Sequence record: MK509462
Origin: Shigella phage MK-13
Reading direction: 5' to 3' (one strand)
Length of the DNA: 64,000 nt
Shown here in pieces: positions 2,814-57,086 of this stretch. The position numbers and the translations under genes are program-made. The first letter of the stretch is position 1. Each line of letters starts with the position of its first letter. The notes below the pieces were generated by a model, which was given only the letters and a program-made list of their open reading frames with translations, was not told the origin of the DNA and did no database searches.

Positions 2814-3623
2814 TTAGACCACAGCCATTTCACAACGGGTGGAGGCCACAGAGTGGCCGTCGGCGTCTTCAACAACACACCAGTACTCACCCTCGTCTGC
2901 GGCATCAACTGCAGTGATAACCAGGCTCGCAGTTGCAGCAGTGGCGTTGGCGCCAGCATCGATCACCACACCTTCACCGCCAGGGACATCAGAGAAGTAC
3001 CAAGCATATGTGTATGGGGTAGTGCCGCCTGTAGCAGCGATGGTGAAGGTTGCGTCTTCACCTGCTGTTACATCCTGAGAAGCAGCCAGATCAGTAGACA
3101 GAGCCAGCGCACCCGCCACTGTGATGACGGTAGAGTCAGTGTGACCACCTTCGATGGTAACACCGTACACAGTCACAGAACCAGGAGCCAGCAGCTTGAA
3201 TTTACCACCGCCGATGTGTACAGCTTTGGTGATGTCACCAGAGTACCAGTTGACACCCTGGTAGGTCGCGTTCGCCGGAGCGACGGTCGCCAGCAGTTCA
3301 ACAACCTGACCGACTTCACCACCAGCAGTCGCAGGGGTGATGGTCAGGCCAGTGGTCAGCACGGCGCTTGGGTCGTGGATTTCGTAAGAGATCTCGAAGC
3401 CGATAGGCTTGGTTGGATCAACTTTGGTCACGCCATCAGCCTGAAGATTGCTCTTGGTCAGAAGTGCATCCAGGCCTTTACACTCGGTCAGGATCTCGTC
3501 AGGGTCTTGGTTAAGACTGGTCTTTTCCCAACCCTTGGCAGTGCCTGTCACGGTGTGCAGACGCTCGGTTTCCGGTTTGTTGCGAACAACTTCCGGTGCT
3601 ACTAATACAGTGATTGTTGGCAT
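2814..3623 (-). CDS. Ig-like domain protein (Hoc-like / BIG2-type)
   Basis: ATG at 3623 with GGAGGA SD; contains a BIG2-like segment (LLATVAPANATYQGVNWYS) and an Ig-like C-terminus (YTYAWYF...GEYWCVVEDADG); ORF-track start at 3635 is GTG. Confidence 0.6.
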   Translation of the reverse strand: MPTITVLVAPEVVRNKPETERLHTVTGTAKGWEKTSLNQDPDEILTECKGLDALLTKSNLQADGVTKVDPTKPIGFEISYEIHDPSAVLTTGLTITPATAGGEVGQVVELLATVAPANATYQGVNWYSGDITKAVHIGGGKFKLLAPGSVTVYGVTIEGGHTDSTVITVAGALALSTDLAASQDVTAGEDATFTIAATGGTTPYTYAWYFSDVPGGEGVVIDAGANATAATASLVITAVDAADEGEYWCVVEDADGHSVASTRCEMAVV

Positions 3624-3994
3624 GGTTTCCTCCACTCGCCCAAATCGTTGTTCAGAGCCATTAATAGCTCGTTATCTGGTTCGTATGAACCGGAACATAA
3701 ATCATCACGCCATACGCCTAACGTCAACAAAGCAGCCTTGAGGCGCGGAAGCTGAGACTTATCCGTTTTCAACACAAGCATACGACAGACTGCTTCTGCT
3801 TCGAACGTATTGAAGAGAGTGATCAGCTGATTCAATATGAGCCTTGGACTCTTGCCAGGCACAAATCTCTTCAATGATTGGTTAATTAGCGAAATTCGCT
3901 GTATGTCTGTCAGCAACTCATCCCGTGAGATAGAATCAACAATGTAATGCCTCAAGGCATACTCTATCAGATTGCTTTCGTCAACGATAACCAT
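3602..3994 (-). CDS. hypothetical protein (130 aa)
   Basis: Minus-strand ORF, overlaps the next gene start. Confidence 0.5.
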   Translation of the reverse strand: MVIVDESNLIEYALRHYIVDSISRDELLTDIQRISLINQSLKRFVPGKSPRLILNQLITLFNTFEAEAVCRMLVLKTDKSQLPRLKAALLTLGVWRDDLCSGSYEPDNELLMALNNDLGEWRKPCQQSLY

Positions 3995-4023
3995 ATAGAT
4001 TAATTCAGCTGTTGTACACTGCT

Positions 4024-4449
4024 TTATTTAATCTGCAATTTTTCGATCAGTTGAGCAATCAACGTAATGCGATCTTCTACTGTGATACCCAAAGGTTCAG
4101 CCAGCAGCTTCAGGTCGTCCATACCCAGAAGGTTCAGAGTATCTGCTGTAATGTTGGTGGAGATGACAGCGCCCTTCTCAAACGGCTTGCCATACTTGTC
4201 GCGACCATAACGCTTCAGCGTGGACGCCAACCCTGGAAGCTCCTGGAGGAGTTCTTTGGTGCCGTCTTGGTATTCGCACACCCAACCGTACCCGCCAGCG
4301 TAGACGACGCCTCCATCCCCGCCTGTAGGCATGTTGTCTACAGCGCGTTGCAGGTAGGTAGGTAACACACCTTCCTCCTTCGCCTGGATGTCATCAACGG
4401 GGGCTGCAGTTGCGGTTTCAACTTTCTTGGTTTCGGGTTTCTTCGCCAT
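4024..4449 (-). CDS. hypothetical protein (141 aa)
   Basis: Minus-strand ORF with lysine-rich N-terminus. Confidence 0.55.
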   Translation of the reverse strand: MAKKPETKKVETATAAPVDDIQAKEEGVLPTYLQRAVDNMPTGGDGGVVYAGGYGWVCEYQDGTKELLQELPGLASTLKRYGRDKYGKPFEKGAVISTNITADTLNLLGMDDLKLLAEPLGITVEDRITLIAQLIEKLQIK

Positions 4450-4723
4450 GATTGGTTCTCCTATAGACTGTTATGTATTTACCACAGCAATTGCAGCAGT
4501 ATACGTGCATTGCATACCCATCATCTGTGAAGTCACAACCACCACAGCGACAGAACAACTTCACGAACTGGTCGCCATGCACTTCACGGGGAGGGAATTG
4601 TTTGTGGGAGTATTCCCTGGTCTCTCCTTCGAATTGGAAAGAGTCAATCAGGAACTTCGTTATCCGGCGGTGTGGTCCATATGCTTGCTGGGCATATTTG
4701 AAGTAGACATCAGTGGTTAACAT
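4418..4723 (-). CDS. cysteine-rich small protein (possible zinc-binding)
   Basis: 101-aa ORF with CRCGGC...CCNCCGK cysteine cluster. Confidence 0.45.
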   Translation of the reverse strand: MLTTDVYFKYAQQAYGPHRRITKFLIDSFQFEGETREYSHKQFPPREVHGDQFVKLFCRCGGCDFTDDGYAMHVYCCNCCGKYITVYRRTNHGEETRNQES

Positions 4724-4774
4724 ATCGACCTCAAAGAAAAGGAGGCCGAAGCCCCCTTGCAGGTTTACTGAAGA

Positions 4775-6337
4775 TTACTTGTACAGGCCAGTGACGTCAA
4801 TAGACTTGTGCTGGCGGTTGTACTCAGCAGTGTAGTCATCCAACACCAGGTATTCGCAGCAGCGGATTTTACTGGAGCCATAATCGTTGGTGATAGACAC
4901 GATATCTTTCGGGTTCAGCTTACAGCGAACAACGCGCTGGCCAACAGAACCGAAACACTGTTTCAGGTAGGCCAGGGAGCACACATGCAGACCGTATGAA
5001 CACAGGTCGGAGTTGTTGTCGTTCACGAATGAGCGAGCCATGCGCACGATAGTGCCTGGTGCGTTGCTGATCGTGTTGCTGTGTTTGTCCATGTAGTTGC
5101 CGCGCACCGATTTGTAGAGGATGATGTCACCATCGTCGTCAATTTCGATGTCGGAGTACGCCATGAACTCATAGATGCGCCCAGACTGAACCAGAGCAGC
5201 CGACGGGTTCTGGAACATTTTGTCCATAAACTTCGCCATGCGGTCCAGGTTGTGGAAGTCACCCTTCAGCATCAGCGCCAGTACACGCTTGGCGATGGAT
5301 GTGCCTGTGATGTCATGGCCAGACCAGCGGACACGGTTGTCAGACACGTCTACCAGACCTTCAGCGTACTTCGCGATGGCATCACGAGGGCGCATCAGCG
5401 AGTATGCCAGCTTCACGTCTTTGTCTTTGATCGCCTGTACGATGCGGTCATATGCTGGATGTGAAGTGGTGATCGTTTCCGGCTTGCCGTCAATTGCGAT
5501 AACAACGCTGTCAGGCAGAATCAGGATCTGGTGTTCGTTCAGGAACACGTCCAGGTCTTTCGCGCCGAAGTCCTGCTTGGTCTTCTTGTCATCAGCCACT
5601 TCTTCAACTTCTTTGATAGCGACAGCGAATTCCACAGAAGACAGAGCCAGGCGCAGGGTGCGGCCGAGGATGGCATCGAAGTAACCAACACGACGACGGG
5701 CATCCAAGGATCCACGAATAGGATAGGTTTCCCCGTCAACCACAACGCTGATTTCAACGTTGCTCGGAACTTTATCCGCACCTTCTGACAGCGCCACAGA
5801 AATTTCTGCCATCTTACCGATAGCTTCAACGCCGAAAGCGCGGCTGTTTCCTTCAACAGGAGTCAGTTCGGATTTTTCAAAGAAAGCCCCTTTGAAATTG
5901 CCGTCGTTAGTGAGACACAGATACTTGTTGTGGTTCGGTAGATATGCCCCAACATACCATTCTGAGTCATCTTTGTCTTTGGCCGTGCCGCCCGGTTGCA
6001 CCTCGAACACTTCCTGCTCTTCCTGCTTGATAGGAGAGATCACAGTTACCTTGTTTTCCTCCTCAGTAATCCGGACCAGCAGAGCGCGAGCAATGGTCTT
6101 GGCGCTTACAGCAAAGAACTCAGCCAGGGCGCGGTTGCTTTCGCCAGCCTTGCTCTTCACCTGAATCTGCTGAATCTCTTCAGTGGTCAGAGATTTCAGC
6201 GATAACGGGTTAACACCGAGTTCCGTGTCTGCAACACGTTGTACAGTCGAGCGGGGTATGCCCAACAGAGTGGCAATTGCGCTCTGGCTCATGCCTGCCT
6301 TCAAATGCTTGAGGATCTTTTCGTCAATCTTGTTCAT
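4775..6337 (-). CDS. rIIB: rIIB-like protein
   Basis: ATG at 6337 (ORF-track start 6424 is TTG); N-terminal HTH-like segment MSQSAIATLLGIPRSTVQRV; C-terminus ...GLHVCSLAYLKQCFG...RVVRCKLNPKDIVSI..DY...KIRCCEY resembles rIIB as recalled; lies directly downstream of rIIA as in T4. Confidence 0.65.
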   Translation of the reverse strand: MNKIDEKILKHLKAGMSQSAIATLLGIPRSTVQRVADTELGVNPLSLKSLTTEEIQQIQVKSKAGESNRALAEFFAVSAKTIARALLVRITEEENKVTVISPIKQEEQEVFEVQPGGTAKDKDDSEWYVGAYLPNHNKYLCLTNDGNFKGAFFEKSELTPVEGNSRAFGVEAIGKMAEISVALSEGADKVPSNVEISVVVDGETYPIRGSLDARRRVGYFDAILGRTLRLALSSVEFAVAIKEVEEVADDKKTKQDFGAKDLDVFLNEHQILILPDSVVIAIDGKPETITTSHPAYDRIVQAIKDKDVKLAYSLMRPRDAIAKYAEGLVDVSDNRVRWSGHDITGTSIAKRVLALMLKGDFHNLDRMAKFMDKMFQNPSAALVQSGRIYEFMAYSDIEIDDDGDIILYKSVRGNYMDKHSNTISNAPGTIVRMARSFVNDNNSDLCSYGLHVCSLAYLKQCFGSVGQRVVRCKLNPKDIVSITNDYGSSKIRCCEYLVLDDYTAEYNRQHKSIDVTGLYK

Positions 6338-54193: not shown

Positions 54194-54895
54194 ATGAGTG
54201 CTATGTCAGAACGCCTATTGTCCACCCTCGGTGCTATCCAAGCGCGGGATGAGGTCGCTCAAGAAGTCATGGAGAAGACCTCGCCTGTGGCTGGAAAAGA
54301 TTATGATCCGGATACAGGCGAATGGTTGGGTGAAAAGCCTGCAGGGTATGAGCCTGTGGTGTTCCCTCCTTCTCTGGACCCAGAAGAGCTGAAGTCCAAG
54401 GAATCTAAGGTTCCAGACTTCGAAGACACGGACGCCACCACCGACTACAAACGCATCCGTGACACGACTTATGCCATGCAGGAAGCCACGATGTTCATGA
54501 TGGGACAGGCGGCCAAACTCGCGACGACCACTGAAGCACCCCGCGCGTTCACAGTCTTCAAAGAGTTGGGCGAACTCATGCGCGGTCTGAACAAAGACCT
54601 GATGGAGAACCAGAAGACCATCAAGGCCGTTACAGGCGACAAAGAGCCACCTCCTGGGGACGAAACAACCGTCGAGGTCACCACGTCCCCTGATGGCACA
54701 ACCACGGTCAACGTCGGCAAACAGGCCAGGTCTTCCCGTGATCTACTGAAGACCATCGAAGACGCCCGTAAACGTGCTGAAGAACGTACTGCAGCGAAAG
54801 CTGCGTCCAAAGGACCTGATCCCGAAGAAGATGTAATCGAAGTTCAGGCAGAGCCGAAGGAAGAAGGTGAAGACGATGGCGTATCAGAAGCGTGA
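54194..54895 (+). CDS. terminase small subunit (putative)
   Basis: ATG at 54194 with GGAG SD; immediately upstream of and overlapping the large terminase; charged low-complexity C-terminus. Confidence 0.5.
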   Translation: MSAMSERLLSTLGAIQARDEVAQEVMEKTSPVAGKDYDPDTGEWLGEKPAGYEPVVFPPSLDPEELKSKESKVPDFEDTDATTDYKRIRDTTYAMQEATMFMMGQAAKLATTTEAPRAFTVFKELGELMRGLNKDLMENQKTIKAVTGDKEPPPGDETTVEVTTSPDGTTTVNVGKQARSSRDLLKTIEDARKRAEERTAAKAASKGPDPEEDVIEVQAEPKEEGEDDGVSEA

Positions 54896-57086
54896 TATTG
54901 AATATGCCCCGATAAAGACGGGATTCAAGATTGATGATGTCAGATTGCGTATGGACCAGACGTTCATGCGCAAGCCGTCTGTGCGTGCTCCTCGTGTAGA
55001 GTTGATGTTGACCGACGATCAAGAATCGGAGTTCGTTGAGTGCGCAATGGACGCTCATTACTTCGCCGCCAACTACTACAAGATCACGACCATCGATAAG
55101 GGCTTCATCCTCTTCGATATGCATGATTATCAGAAGCAGCTGTTCCATGACTTCCAGGATCACCGCTTCAACGCCGTGGTTCAGGCGCGTCAGTCTGGTA
55201 AGTGTGTGAAGGGTGACAGCATCGTCGAGGTTTACGATACGTTCAGCCAAGAAGAGTTTAAAGTCACCATCGAGGAGCTTCACAGCCGCTTCGAGGGACC
55301 AAATCACGCCGAGCCACTGAATGCCTTTGGCAAACACGATAAGTTCGTAGACAGCCGCTTCGGCAAGCGTTATTTTGTTCGCTGTGACAAAGGCTGGGTG
55401 CCTATCATCGCCGCGCACAAGACCAAGCCGTACCAAGAGTACGTTGTCATCACTTCCAGTGGTCGTCGTATCAACGTGGCCGATGATCACATGTTCTTCA
55501 ATCAGAACATGAAGGAAGTGTTTGCTAAAGATCTGGTTGCTGGTTCACGGCTAATGACCGAAGAAGGTCTAGAAGAAGTCGTTGAGGTATGGCAGACTGG
55601 TGAGGTGCATCACATGTTTGACCTACAGGTGAAATCTAGTGATCAGCGCTACTACACCAACGGCTTCCTCAGCCACAACACGACAGTCGTAGCAGCGTTC
55701 CTGCTCTGGTATGCGATGTTCCACTCTGACAAAGAGATCGCGGTACTGGCGAACAAAGAGAAGCAGGCGATTGAAATCCTAGACCGTATCCGCAAGGCAT
55801 ACCAGGATTTGCCATTCTTCCTCCAACAGGGTTGCGAGAAGTTCGGCTCCACGCTCATCGAGTTCGAAAACGGGTCGAAGATCTACGCCTATGCGACATC
55901 CTCTGACTCCATCCGTGGTCGATCTGTATCTCTTCTGTATGTAGACGAAGTGGCGTTCATTGAAAACGACTTTGAATTCTGGGAGTCTACATTCCCGGCG
56001 ATTGCATCTGCAGATACATCACGTTGTATCCTGACCAGTACGCCGAAAGGTCAGCGCGGGTTGTTCTACGACATCGTCACCAAGGCGAACCCAGAACACC
56101 CTCAGTACAACGACTTCAAACTCACAGAGGTTCCATGGTATCGTGTTCCAACATACACCAAGGATCCGAACTGGGAATCCAAACAGAGGGCGAAGCTGGG
56201 CGATGCACGTTTCGATCAGGAATTCGGTATCAAGTTCCGTGGTTCTGTAGGATCACTGATACCTGCCAAGTGTCTAGACAAGATGACCTCGAAACTCTAT
56301 CAGGAGCCGAACGAGTTCACCAAGATCTACCACGATTACGATCCGAAGCGCATCTACATGGGTATCGCCGATACAGGCAAAGGTGTGGAGGGGGATTACT
56401 CTGTTCTGACCATCTTGGACATCACAGACTATCCTCACAAGATTGCGGCCAAGTATCGGAACAACACGATACCTCCAATGATGTATGCATACACTATCGC
56501 CGACATGGGCGAGAAATATGGCACGTGTCCGATGTTGGTTGAAACCAACAACGACGTGGGCGGCCAGGTAATCACAATTCTATATCAGGAAATTGAATAC
56601 CCGGAGATCATCTTCACTACCACAGATGCGAAGGGTACTGGCAAACGAATTGGTGGCCGCCGCCCTGAGCCTGGCATCAACACGAACAAGAAAGTGCGTT
56701 CGAATGGTTGTGCTAACCTCAAGGCGCTTATCGAACGTGAGATGCTGGTGGTTGATGACCAAGACACGATAGATGAACTCAGTACATTCGTATGGACTGG
56801 GACAAGGTATGAAGCCGATGATGGTTGTCATGATGACTGTGTGATGCCTCTCGTGCTCTATGCATGGGCGGTGAAACAAGAATGGTTTAGTGATCTCACA
56901 AACTCAAGTATCTCTGTGGACATGAGAGGAAGATTATCTGCGATGGAAGAATCTCAGATGTTACCTTTCGGGGGTGTGCTTTCAACACCAGATCCTCACT
57001 CTATAGAGAGTATCCCAGGGTTTGGTGGAGTTCAGGTGTATGACGAACGCTCTGGCATGTCCATGGAAGAATGGCTGAGACGGTGA
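54876..57086 (+). CDS. terminase large subunit (T4 gp17-like), interrupted by a mini-intein
   Basis: ATG at 54876 (ORF-track start is GTG); Walker A reconstituted as ARQSGK|TTVVAAF after removing the intein. Confidence 0.9.
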   Translation: MAYQKRDIEYAPIKTGFKIDDVRLRMDQTFMRKPSVRAPRVELMLTDDQESEFVECAMDAHYFAANYYKITTIDKGFILFDMHDYQKQLFHDFQDHRFNAVVQARQSGKCVKGDSIVEVYDTFSQEEFKVTIEELHSRFEGPNHAEPLNAFGKHDKFVDSRFGKRYFVRCDKGWVPIIAAHKTKPYQEYVVITSSGRRINVADDHMFFNQNMKEVFAKDLVAGSRLMTEEGLEEVVEVWQTGEVHHMFDLQVKSSDQRYYTNGFLSHNTTVVAAFLLWYAMFHSDKEIAVLANKEKQAIEILDRIRKAYQDLPFFLQQGCEKFGSTLIEFENGSKIYAYATSSDSIRGRSVSLLYVDEVAFIENDFEFWESTFPAIASADTSRCILTSTPKGQRGLFYDIVTKANPEHPQYNDFKLTEVPWYRVPTYTKDPNWESKQRAKLGDARFDQEFGIKFRGSVGSLIPAKCLDKMTSKLYQEPNEFTKIYHDYDPKRIYMGIADTGKGVEGDYSVLTILDITDYPHKIAAKYRNNTIPPMMYAYTIADMGEKYGTCPMLVETNNDVGGQVITILYQEIEYPEIIFTTTDAKGTGKRIGGRRPEPGINTNKKVRSNGCANLKALIEREMLVVDDQDTIDELSTFVWTGTRYEADDGCHDDCVMPLVLYAWAVKQEWFSDLTNSSISVDMRGRLSAMEESQMLPFGGVLSTPDPHSIESIPGFGGVQVYDERSGMSMEEWLRR
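55203..55679 (+). mobile_element. mini-intein (159 aa) inserted in the terminase Walker A P-loop
   Basis: Starts with Cys right after ARQSGK, ends ...GFLSHN followed by Thr; HINT-like blocks (INVADDHMFF, VHHMFDLQV); no LAGLIDADG/HNH/GIY-YIG motif seen. Confidence 0.8.

Follow-up and report, generated by a model that had tools for sequence, protein, structure and literature searches.

A putative contiguous mini-intein between the P-loop lysine and threonine of the large terminase of Shigella phage MK-13

The gene for the large terminase subunit (TerL) in a 64,000-nucleotide (nt) stretch of DNA from Shigella phage MK-13 (sequence record MK509462; the whole stretch is hereafter referred to as the window) is interrupted by an insert at positions 55203–55679. 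It is very probable that this insert is a contiguous class-1 mini-intein, which excises from the TerL precursor and restores the P-loop of the enzyme. The insert had been noticed in an inspection of the letters of the window alone (the original prediction), according to which it comprises 159 amino acids (aa), begins with Cys right after ARQSGK, and ends with His-Asn followed by Thr. The DNA read directly agrees with this to the base: the insert is a stop-free, in-frame segment of 477 nt, whose Cys1 codon (TGT) occupies 55203–55205 and whose His-Asn codons (CAC AAC) occupy 55674–55679, and the Thr codon at position +1 (ACG) follows at 55680–55682. In direct translation, TerL reads ...NAVVQARQSGK / CVKGDSIVEV...YYTNGFLSHN / TTVVAAFLLWY..., where the bars mark the insert boundaries.

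Excision of the insert restores a Walker A motif of the T4 gp17 type, as had been claimed: ARQSGK-TTVVAAF is colinear with gp17, and ARQSGKTTVVA of the spliced product is aligned on SRQLGKTTVVA of the gp17 Walker A. This colinearity (PDB 3ezk/3cpe; E = 4e-71) extends over residues 29–517 of the 577-aa product. In the TerL Walker A, the insert directly separates the invariant Lys from the invariant Thr, precisely as stated in the original prediction. In the Pfam search, TerL matched Terminase_6N (PF03237; E = 4e-17, 62.9 bits, cut-off 22) and Terminase_6C (PF17289; E = 3e-6, 27.8 bits, cut-off 22.6), and the window TerL is, by its sequence, an enzyme of the gp17 type (Terminase_6), with a Walker A ATPase and an RNaseH-like nuclease domain.

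For the analysis of conservation, 30 inteins located at the same site were cut from TerL homologues, which had been found with the whole precursor as the query, and were then aligned. C1, K47, G64, T74, A93-D94-x-H96, T119, G122, M138, D140, T152, L156-S157-H158-N159, and T+1 are invariant among them. The intein blocks that had been perceived in the insert are therewith confirmed; the residues of blocks A, B, F, and G are all present in the window, and the fold model described below agrees with them. The invariant residues constitute the catalytic set of a class-1 intein, except that block B has Ala at the Thr position of TxxH. Among the 150 best representatives, block G is near-universal, and residue +1 is T in 97 and S in 51. 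A class-3 intein was also considered and rejected: the insert starts with Cys1, and its block F (MFDLQV) contains no Cys.

The insert alone retrieved 748 proteins at E ≤ 1e-3 and 371 at E ≤ 1e-10 from 1.84 billion representative proteins (HMMER), and phmmer gave weak matches to the solved inteins CatC, the CDC21 intein, gp41-1, VidaL, and Mxe GyrA. A profile built from 23 homologues matched the solved inteins VidaL (1.9e-12), gp41-1 (5.8e-12), and CatC (3.3e-8). In these matches, blocks B, F, and G stayed in register, and His96 of block B was aligned with CAFNH of VidaL, CSEEH of gp41-1, and CSDNH of CatC; the same profile also matched NrdJ-1 (8e-4) and the CDC21, DnaX, and GyrA inteins. The AlphaFold2 model calculated from the homologue alignment is one compact, beta-rich domain (predicted local distance difference test score (pLDDT), 92.4; predicted template modeling score, 0.86). 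When this model was compared with the PDB by Foldseek, inteins made up the best 40 matches (probability 1.00), and the remainder of the listed top 50 consisted of inteins or bacterial intein-like (HINT) domains; the top match was VidaL (6vgv; E = 8.6e-10, template modeling scores 0.78/0.85). The predicted structure is thus that of a HINT fold, and, given the large number of homologues together with the profile and model matches, the pattern did not arise by chance.

The Pfam/NCBIfam scan of the insert detected no endonuclease family (no LAGLIDADG, HNH, or GIY-YIG), and in the model, all but a soft linker of 16–20 residues belongs to the compact HINT domain. For these reasons, the insert is regarded as a mini-intein, and its 159 aa lie within the range of such inteins (about 130–200 aa). 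The predicted absence of a homing endonuclease is therefore upheld.

Several observations weigh against this interpretation. The search of the insert against intein profiles, which had been proposed as a check, succeeded only in part: Intein_splicing (PF14890) was matched with E = 1.2e-7, but the score of 32.1 bits is below the curated cut-off of 35.8, and the scores for TIGR01445 (15.3 against 24.5 bits) and TIGR01443 (10.7 against 15.6 bits) also fall below the TIGRFAM cut-offs. The missed cut-offs are a matter of detection threshold and not a biological criterion. The replacement of the block B Thr by Ala, mentioned above, extends across the family of the window intein. Further, when the window TerL is compared with that of Salmonella phage P46FS4, all 7 of the 7 aa differences are located in the intein, while the 577 extein residues are identical; the constraint on most intein positions is therefore loose. 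The proportions of nonsynonymous and synonymous differences between these two inteins are about equal (0.018 and 0.021, respectively), although the numbers are small. Finally, no report of experimental splicing of any Ackermannviridae TerL intein was found in the searchable literature.

The same missed cut-offs count in favor of the insert being a permanent HINT-like domain of the mature terminase whose splicing has been lost, as do some GenBank records in which the entire product is named simply 'terminase large subunit' or 'pretoxin HINT domain protein'. However, a GKT motif whose Lys and Thr are 159 residues apart is incompatible with a P-loop, the catalytic splicing residues are all invariant, including the +1 nucleophile, and the insert is either wholly present or wholly absent with exact boundaries; we give this explanation very little credence. 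Even more remote is the explanation that the insert is a pretoxin-HINT domain or a bacterial intein-like domain of a polymorphic toxin. The Pfam match to PF07591 (E = 2.6e-4, 21.7 bits), which suggests it, is below the gathering cut-off of 27.7 and also scores lower than the intein match. The name 'pretoxin HINT domain protein' in Dickeya phage records (for example, RC-2014, phiD3, phiDP23.1, and phiDP10.3) points in the same direction, but the region downstream of the insert is, from Thr+1 onward, the second half of the essential TerL ATPase/nuclease and not a toxin domain, and the structural neighbors found by Foldseek are inteins.

The remaining alternative refines the mini-intein interpretation rather than replacing it: splicing may be conditional (on redox state, temperature, or a TerS or DNA partner), so that it serves as a post-translational switch that sets when active terminase appears, and the intein is not a neutral passenger. 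Its presence obstructs the active site and probably also oligomerization, as has been argued for the mycobacteriophage TerL inteins (PMC5050341), and it has been retained across several genera under purifying selection. On the other hand, the sequence holds no sign of a sensor, the intein-free alleles of close relatives work, and the mycobacteriophage TerL inteins were spliced quickly in a reporter (PMC5050341). A conserved redox trap was considered and rejected, as the second Cys (Cys61) is not conserved among the homologues. Overall, we consider a switch of this kind unlikely.

The TerL homologues clarified that the insertion site has two states, RQSGK/C...[TN..]LSHN/TT and RQSGK/TTVVAAF. 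The inteins found at this site are 150–183 aa in length, with the addition of three of 443–451 aa. No homologue carried a colinear insertion that would be kept in the mature protein; each had either no insert or an insert with exactly these boundaries. When a 147-aa query spanning the spliced junction was used in tblastn, more than 2300 T4-like phage genomes matched it in one piece of 441 nt, while the enterobacterial Ackermannviridae matched it in two pieces over 918 nt, that is, 441 + 477. Intein-free sites that are exact in the DNA (GGTAAG/ACNAC) were found in Vibrio phage K353 and in two metagenomic contigs resembling Ackermannviridae, with exteins that share 84.5% and 76.5% identity with those of the window. 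An intein-free TerL of 580 aa is also encoded by Erwinia phage Bue1 (Ackermannviridae, Nezavisimistyvirus); its alignment with the spliced product shows 77% identity and needs only one gap. Functional intein-free alleles thus have exactly the sequence expected from splicing, and the presence/absence polymorphism is precise. In a neighbor-joining tree of the exteins (calculated without support values), the intein-free alleles are scattered among the intein-bearing ones.

We infer splicing, its chemistry, and its efficiency along the following lines, which are those of the established pathway of inteins. The 84.5-kDa precursor (736 aa) would be translated with its ATP-binding loop physically interrupted, and the intein would fold into the HINT domain and then excise itself. 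An N–S acyl shift at Lys(−1)-Cys1, assisted by His96 of block B, would be followed by trans-esterification onto the hydroxyl of Thr+1, by cyclization of Asn159 with the assistance of His158 and block F Asp140, and by an O–N acyl shift. The products would be the 66.1-kDa TerL with an intact ARQSGKTT P-loop and the free intein of 18.5 kDa. Because TerL is essential and a TerL with an interrupted GK/T loop is unable to bind ATP, packaging would depend on splicing. The intein is devoid of an endonuclease. It may persist mainly by vertical descent, since an imprecise deletion in the P-loop would be lethal, and it may now and then pass between relatives that infect the same cell, by homologous recombination in the conserved flanking sequences.

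The G+C content of the intein (50.1%) is close to that of the host gene (49.7%). Against divergent alleles, the ratio of nonsynonymous to synonymous substitution rates is 0.10–0.20 for the intein and 0.02–0.04 for the exteins; the intein is under purifying selection, which is weaker than that on the exteins. It also diverges faster: between the window and a metagenomic homologue, P0003, identity is 97% in the exteins but 75% in the inteins. In contrast, between P0003 and Escherichia phage PhaxI, a strongly discordant pair, the inteins are 97.5% identical and the exteins only 86.5% (aa). In a sliding nucleotide comparison, the stretch of the P0003 contig (L013; Logan SRR13243541, TerL at 3001–5211) equivalent to about 55140–55590 of the window is 90–100% identical to PhaxI, whereas its flanks are about 75–85% identical to PhaxI and mostly about 85–98% identical to the window. 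The discordance is explained by the replacement of most of the intein through recombination between Agtrevirus-like and Kuttervirus lineages. It is conceivable, if doubtful, that the endonuclease-less intein is no frozen passenger but moves in this manner as a recombination cassette between co-infecting Ackermannviridae, and that conditional splicing gates the onset of packaging.

The positions of the gene and of the parts of the intein are listed in Table 1. The TerL open reading frame (ORF) is 54867/54876..57086 (+), giving 739 aa from GTG 54867, which is the mechanical ORF start, or 736 aa from ATG 54876, at which the annotation of TerL begins in the relatives. The start of TerL overlaps the 3′ end of the small-terminase gene (54188/54194..54895), within 54867–54895. 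The gene order around it is the usual one, namely, neck proteins, gp15, small terminase, large terminase, sheath, tube, and portal. The two phages with which the TerL DNA shares 99% identity, Salmonella phage P46FS4 and Shigella phage Ag3, are members of Agtrevirus (Ackermannviridae), to which the window phage also belongs. In the model, intein residues 1–30 form two strands (7–12 and 17–22) and a helix (23–29).

Table 1. Coordinates in the window of the TerL gene and of the putative intein and its parts
Feature	Position	Strand	Basis
TerL precursor gene	54876..57086	+	Terminase_6N, Terminase_6C; 99% nt identity to P46FS4, Ag3
N-extein, 109 aa; its C-terminal end is the first Walker A half ARQSGK (55185–55202)	54876..55202	+	Sequence; T4 gp17 alignment
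Putative class-1 mini-intein, 159 aa, endonuclease domain absent	55203..55679	+	Sequence, profiles, model, Mooltan/Magnus boundaries
Intein residues 1–30: block A with Cys1, two strands, short helix	55203..55292	+	C1 invariance; model
Intein residues 31–46 (EGPNHAEPLNAFGKHD): variable low-confidence linker	55293..55340	+	pLDDT 72–73, gap-rich alignment
Block B, A93-D94-D95-H96	55479..55490	+	Invariant His; alignment with solved inteins
Block F, M138-F-D140-L-Q-V	55614..55631	+	Met138, Asp140 invariant
Block G, L156-S157-H158-N159: penultimate His, putative cyclizing terminal Asn	55668..55679	+	Conservation
C-extein, 468 aa + stop; first residue, the putative nucleophile Thr+1, is the Walker A Thr (GK/TT)	55680..57086	+	Sequence; T4 gp17 alignment

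The relatives of the intein include many that are split. Among the 150 best representatives, 104 have the last ~113 residues of the intein as their N-terminal part (residues ~46/47–159, aligned on hit residues ~3–125), while only 7 match it over the full length inside a protein. The C-exteins mostly begin with the tail of a terminase Walker A, T/S-T-x-x-A-A-Y-L-L-W. The atypically split inteins found in nature are arranged in this way; among them, AceL-TerL and GOS-TerL are natural split inteins with N-fragments of 25–37 residues, and Cat is their consensus (review, PMC11766414); AceL-TerL, GOS-TerL, and Cat-TerL are terminase-derived, going by their names. Within the group of AceL-TerL, GOS-TerL, Cat (6dsl), and VidaL (6vgv), VidaL and CatC are the closest solved relatives of the window intein by both profile and fold. 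The atypically split inteins are encoded by two genes, whereas the window intein is one polypeptide, predicted to splice in cis, with a 16-residue linker where they are broken. As it is encoded in a single uninterrupted ORF, the window intein is a contiguous relative and not a split intein. It is thus a contiguous member of the atypically split family, with the linker (residues 31–46) at the split point of that family, and residues 1–30 correspond to the short N-fragment of the split relatives, which match only downstream of these residues. A PDB search with the first 45 intein residues for the Cat N-fragment (6dsl chain A) gave only chance-level matches (E > 0.8).

The three long inteins mentioned above belong to metagenomic TerL proteins of 979–1010 aa (P0082, P0086, and P0114), are located at the same site, and carry ~290 extra residues at the linker/split position. 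No endonuclease was detected in them by Pfam, and the extra residues, which are rich in W, S, R, and Q, are possibly intervening DNA read through under another genetic code and not a domain. Delftia phage PhiW-14 (GQ357915; L005, 2246–2788) has an intein at GK/T with two in-frame stops (2375–2380) 43 residues in; its annotated TerL coding sequence (CDS) begins at the next Met (2426), and the upstream N-extein and short N-part of the intein are unannotated. Either this cultured phage has a TerL intein that is naturally split in the atypical manner, or the record contains a sequencing error. In Vibrio phage vB_VmeM-32 (KU160494; L008, 1102–3216), the annotated TerL begins within the intein at the split point of the family (MNDKFLEIN...), the 1.1 kb upstream of it being non-coding, and the same TerL has a second related intein of ~142 aa in Walker B (YVDE/CVSGDTMV...IESHN/C).

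In Pseudomonas phage Paride (OR805295; L009, 637–921, 974–2407, and 2411–3682), two genes together encode a UvsX-like recombinase: the first closes with ...AGESG/CLPETAKVKIRLSKKQS, a 17-residue intein N-fragment, the second opens with an intein C-part ending SSHN/SGKS, and a 477-aa ORF lies between them. Paride has a split intein, related to that of the window, in the P-loop of the recombinase. Campylobacter phage CPt10 (NC_027996; L006, 78–2273) has a distant TerL intein (about 29% identity), apparently placed two residues upstream in the P-loop (...MQPRQ/C...LSHN/SSKST), for which the record flags only the PROSITE 'protein splicing signature'. In Vibrio phage VP-1 (MH363700; L004, 1979–4195 and 4284–5321), a GIY-YIG domain (residues ~506–589) forms the end of the TerL ORF, and what remains of the terminase has a CDS of its own, named 'terminase like family protein'. 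Besides the intein, a homing-endonuclease gene farther downstream seems to cause a second interruption of TerL in VP-1. A GIY-YIG intein in VP-1 and its relatives was rejected as an interpretation: the GIY-YIG domain, at residues ~500–590, is past the ATPase domain and outside the intein.

As to the meaning of these results, the 736-aa 'terminase large subunit' annotated in Ag3, P46FS4, and most Ackermannviridae would in fact be a 577-aa spliced mature enzyme. This is a further case of the known tendency of inteins to occur in the P-loops of essential phage ATPases, and it opens no new question. What it adds is threefold. One is that cultured, genetically tractable phages carry a contiguous relative of the biotechnologically used split inteins of the Cat/VidaL type. 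Another is that natural intein-free alleles exist within the same phage family. The last is the evidence that an intein encoding no endonuclease has been exchanged. In combination, they would enable experiments on the persistence of mini-inteins and the origin of split inteins.

The novelty implied by the original prediction did not hold, as an intein in TerL is already known in the Ackermannviridae and the Lys/Thr site is the textbook one. The genome announcements of Maynard (2013) and of Mooltan and Magnus (2019) state an intein in TerL (PMC3868846, PMC6486243, PMC6763660), and that of Marshall (PMC3853055) is listed as containing the word 'intein'. The GenBank records of Mooltan (Salmonella) and Magnus (Klebsiella) contain a mat_peptide 'intein' of the same 477 nt with the same boundaries as in the window, and that of Salmonella phage Maynard has an 'intein' feature under the TerL match; a separate nr entry for Maynard/Marshall is also named intein. 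In the closest records, P46FS4 and Ag3, the intein is unannotated and the gene is named terminase large subunit. Terminase inteins are the commonest phage inteins, and the 'classic' P-loop insertion is the one that parts the invariant Lys from the Thr nucleophile (Kelley et al. 2016, PMC5050341).

Compared with these known systems, Maynard, Marshall, and Mooltan (Kuttervirus) and Magnus (Taipeivirus) carry an orthologous intein in the same gene and at the same Lys/Thr site as the window, with identities to the window intein of about 72% (Mooltan and Maynard) and about 75% (Magnus), whereas the window belongs to Agtrevirus. The TerL1-a inteins of mycobacteriophages resemble that of the window in being P-loop inteins that obstruct the active site as long as they are not excised, but the mycobacteriophage terminases belong to Terminase_1 and that of the window to Terminase_6 (gp17 type), and the mycobacteriophage TerL inteins tested for cleavage (sites b and c) have identifiable endonuclease domains, which the window intein does not (PMC5050341). 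Five mycobacteriophage TerL inteins were those found to be spliced rapidly in the reporter (Kelley et al. 2016, PMC5050341). Lastly, gp41-1 and NrdJ-1, from phage metagenomes, share the HINT fold and a clear profile similarity with the window intein; they reside in other host proteins and are naturally split, whereas the window intein is contiguous.

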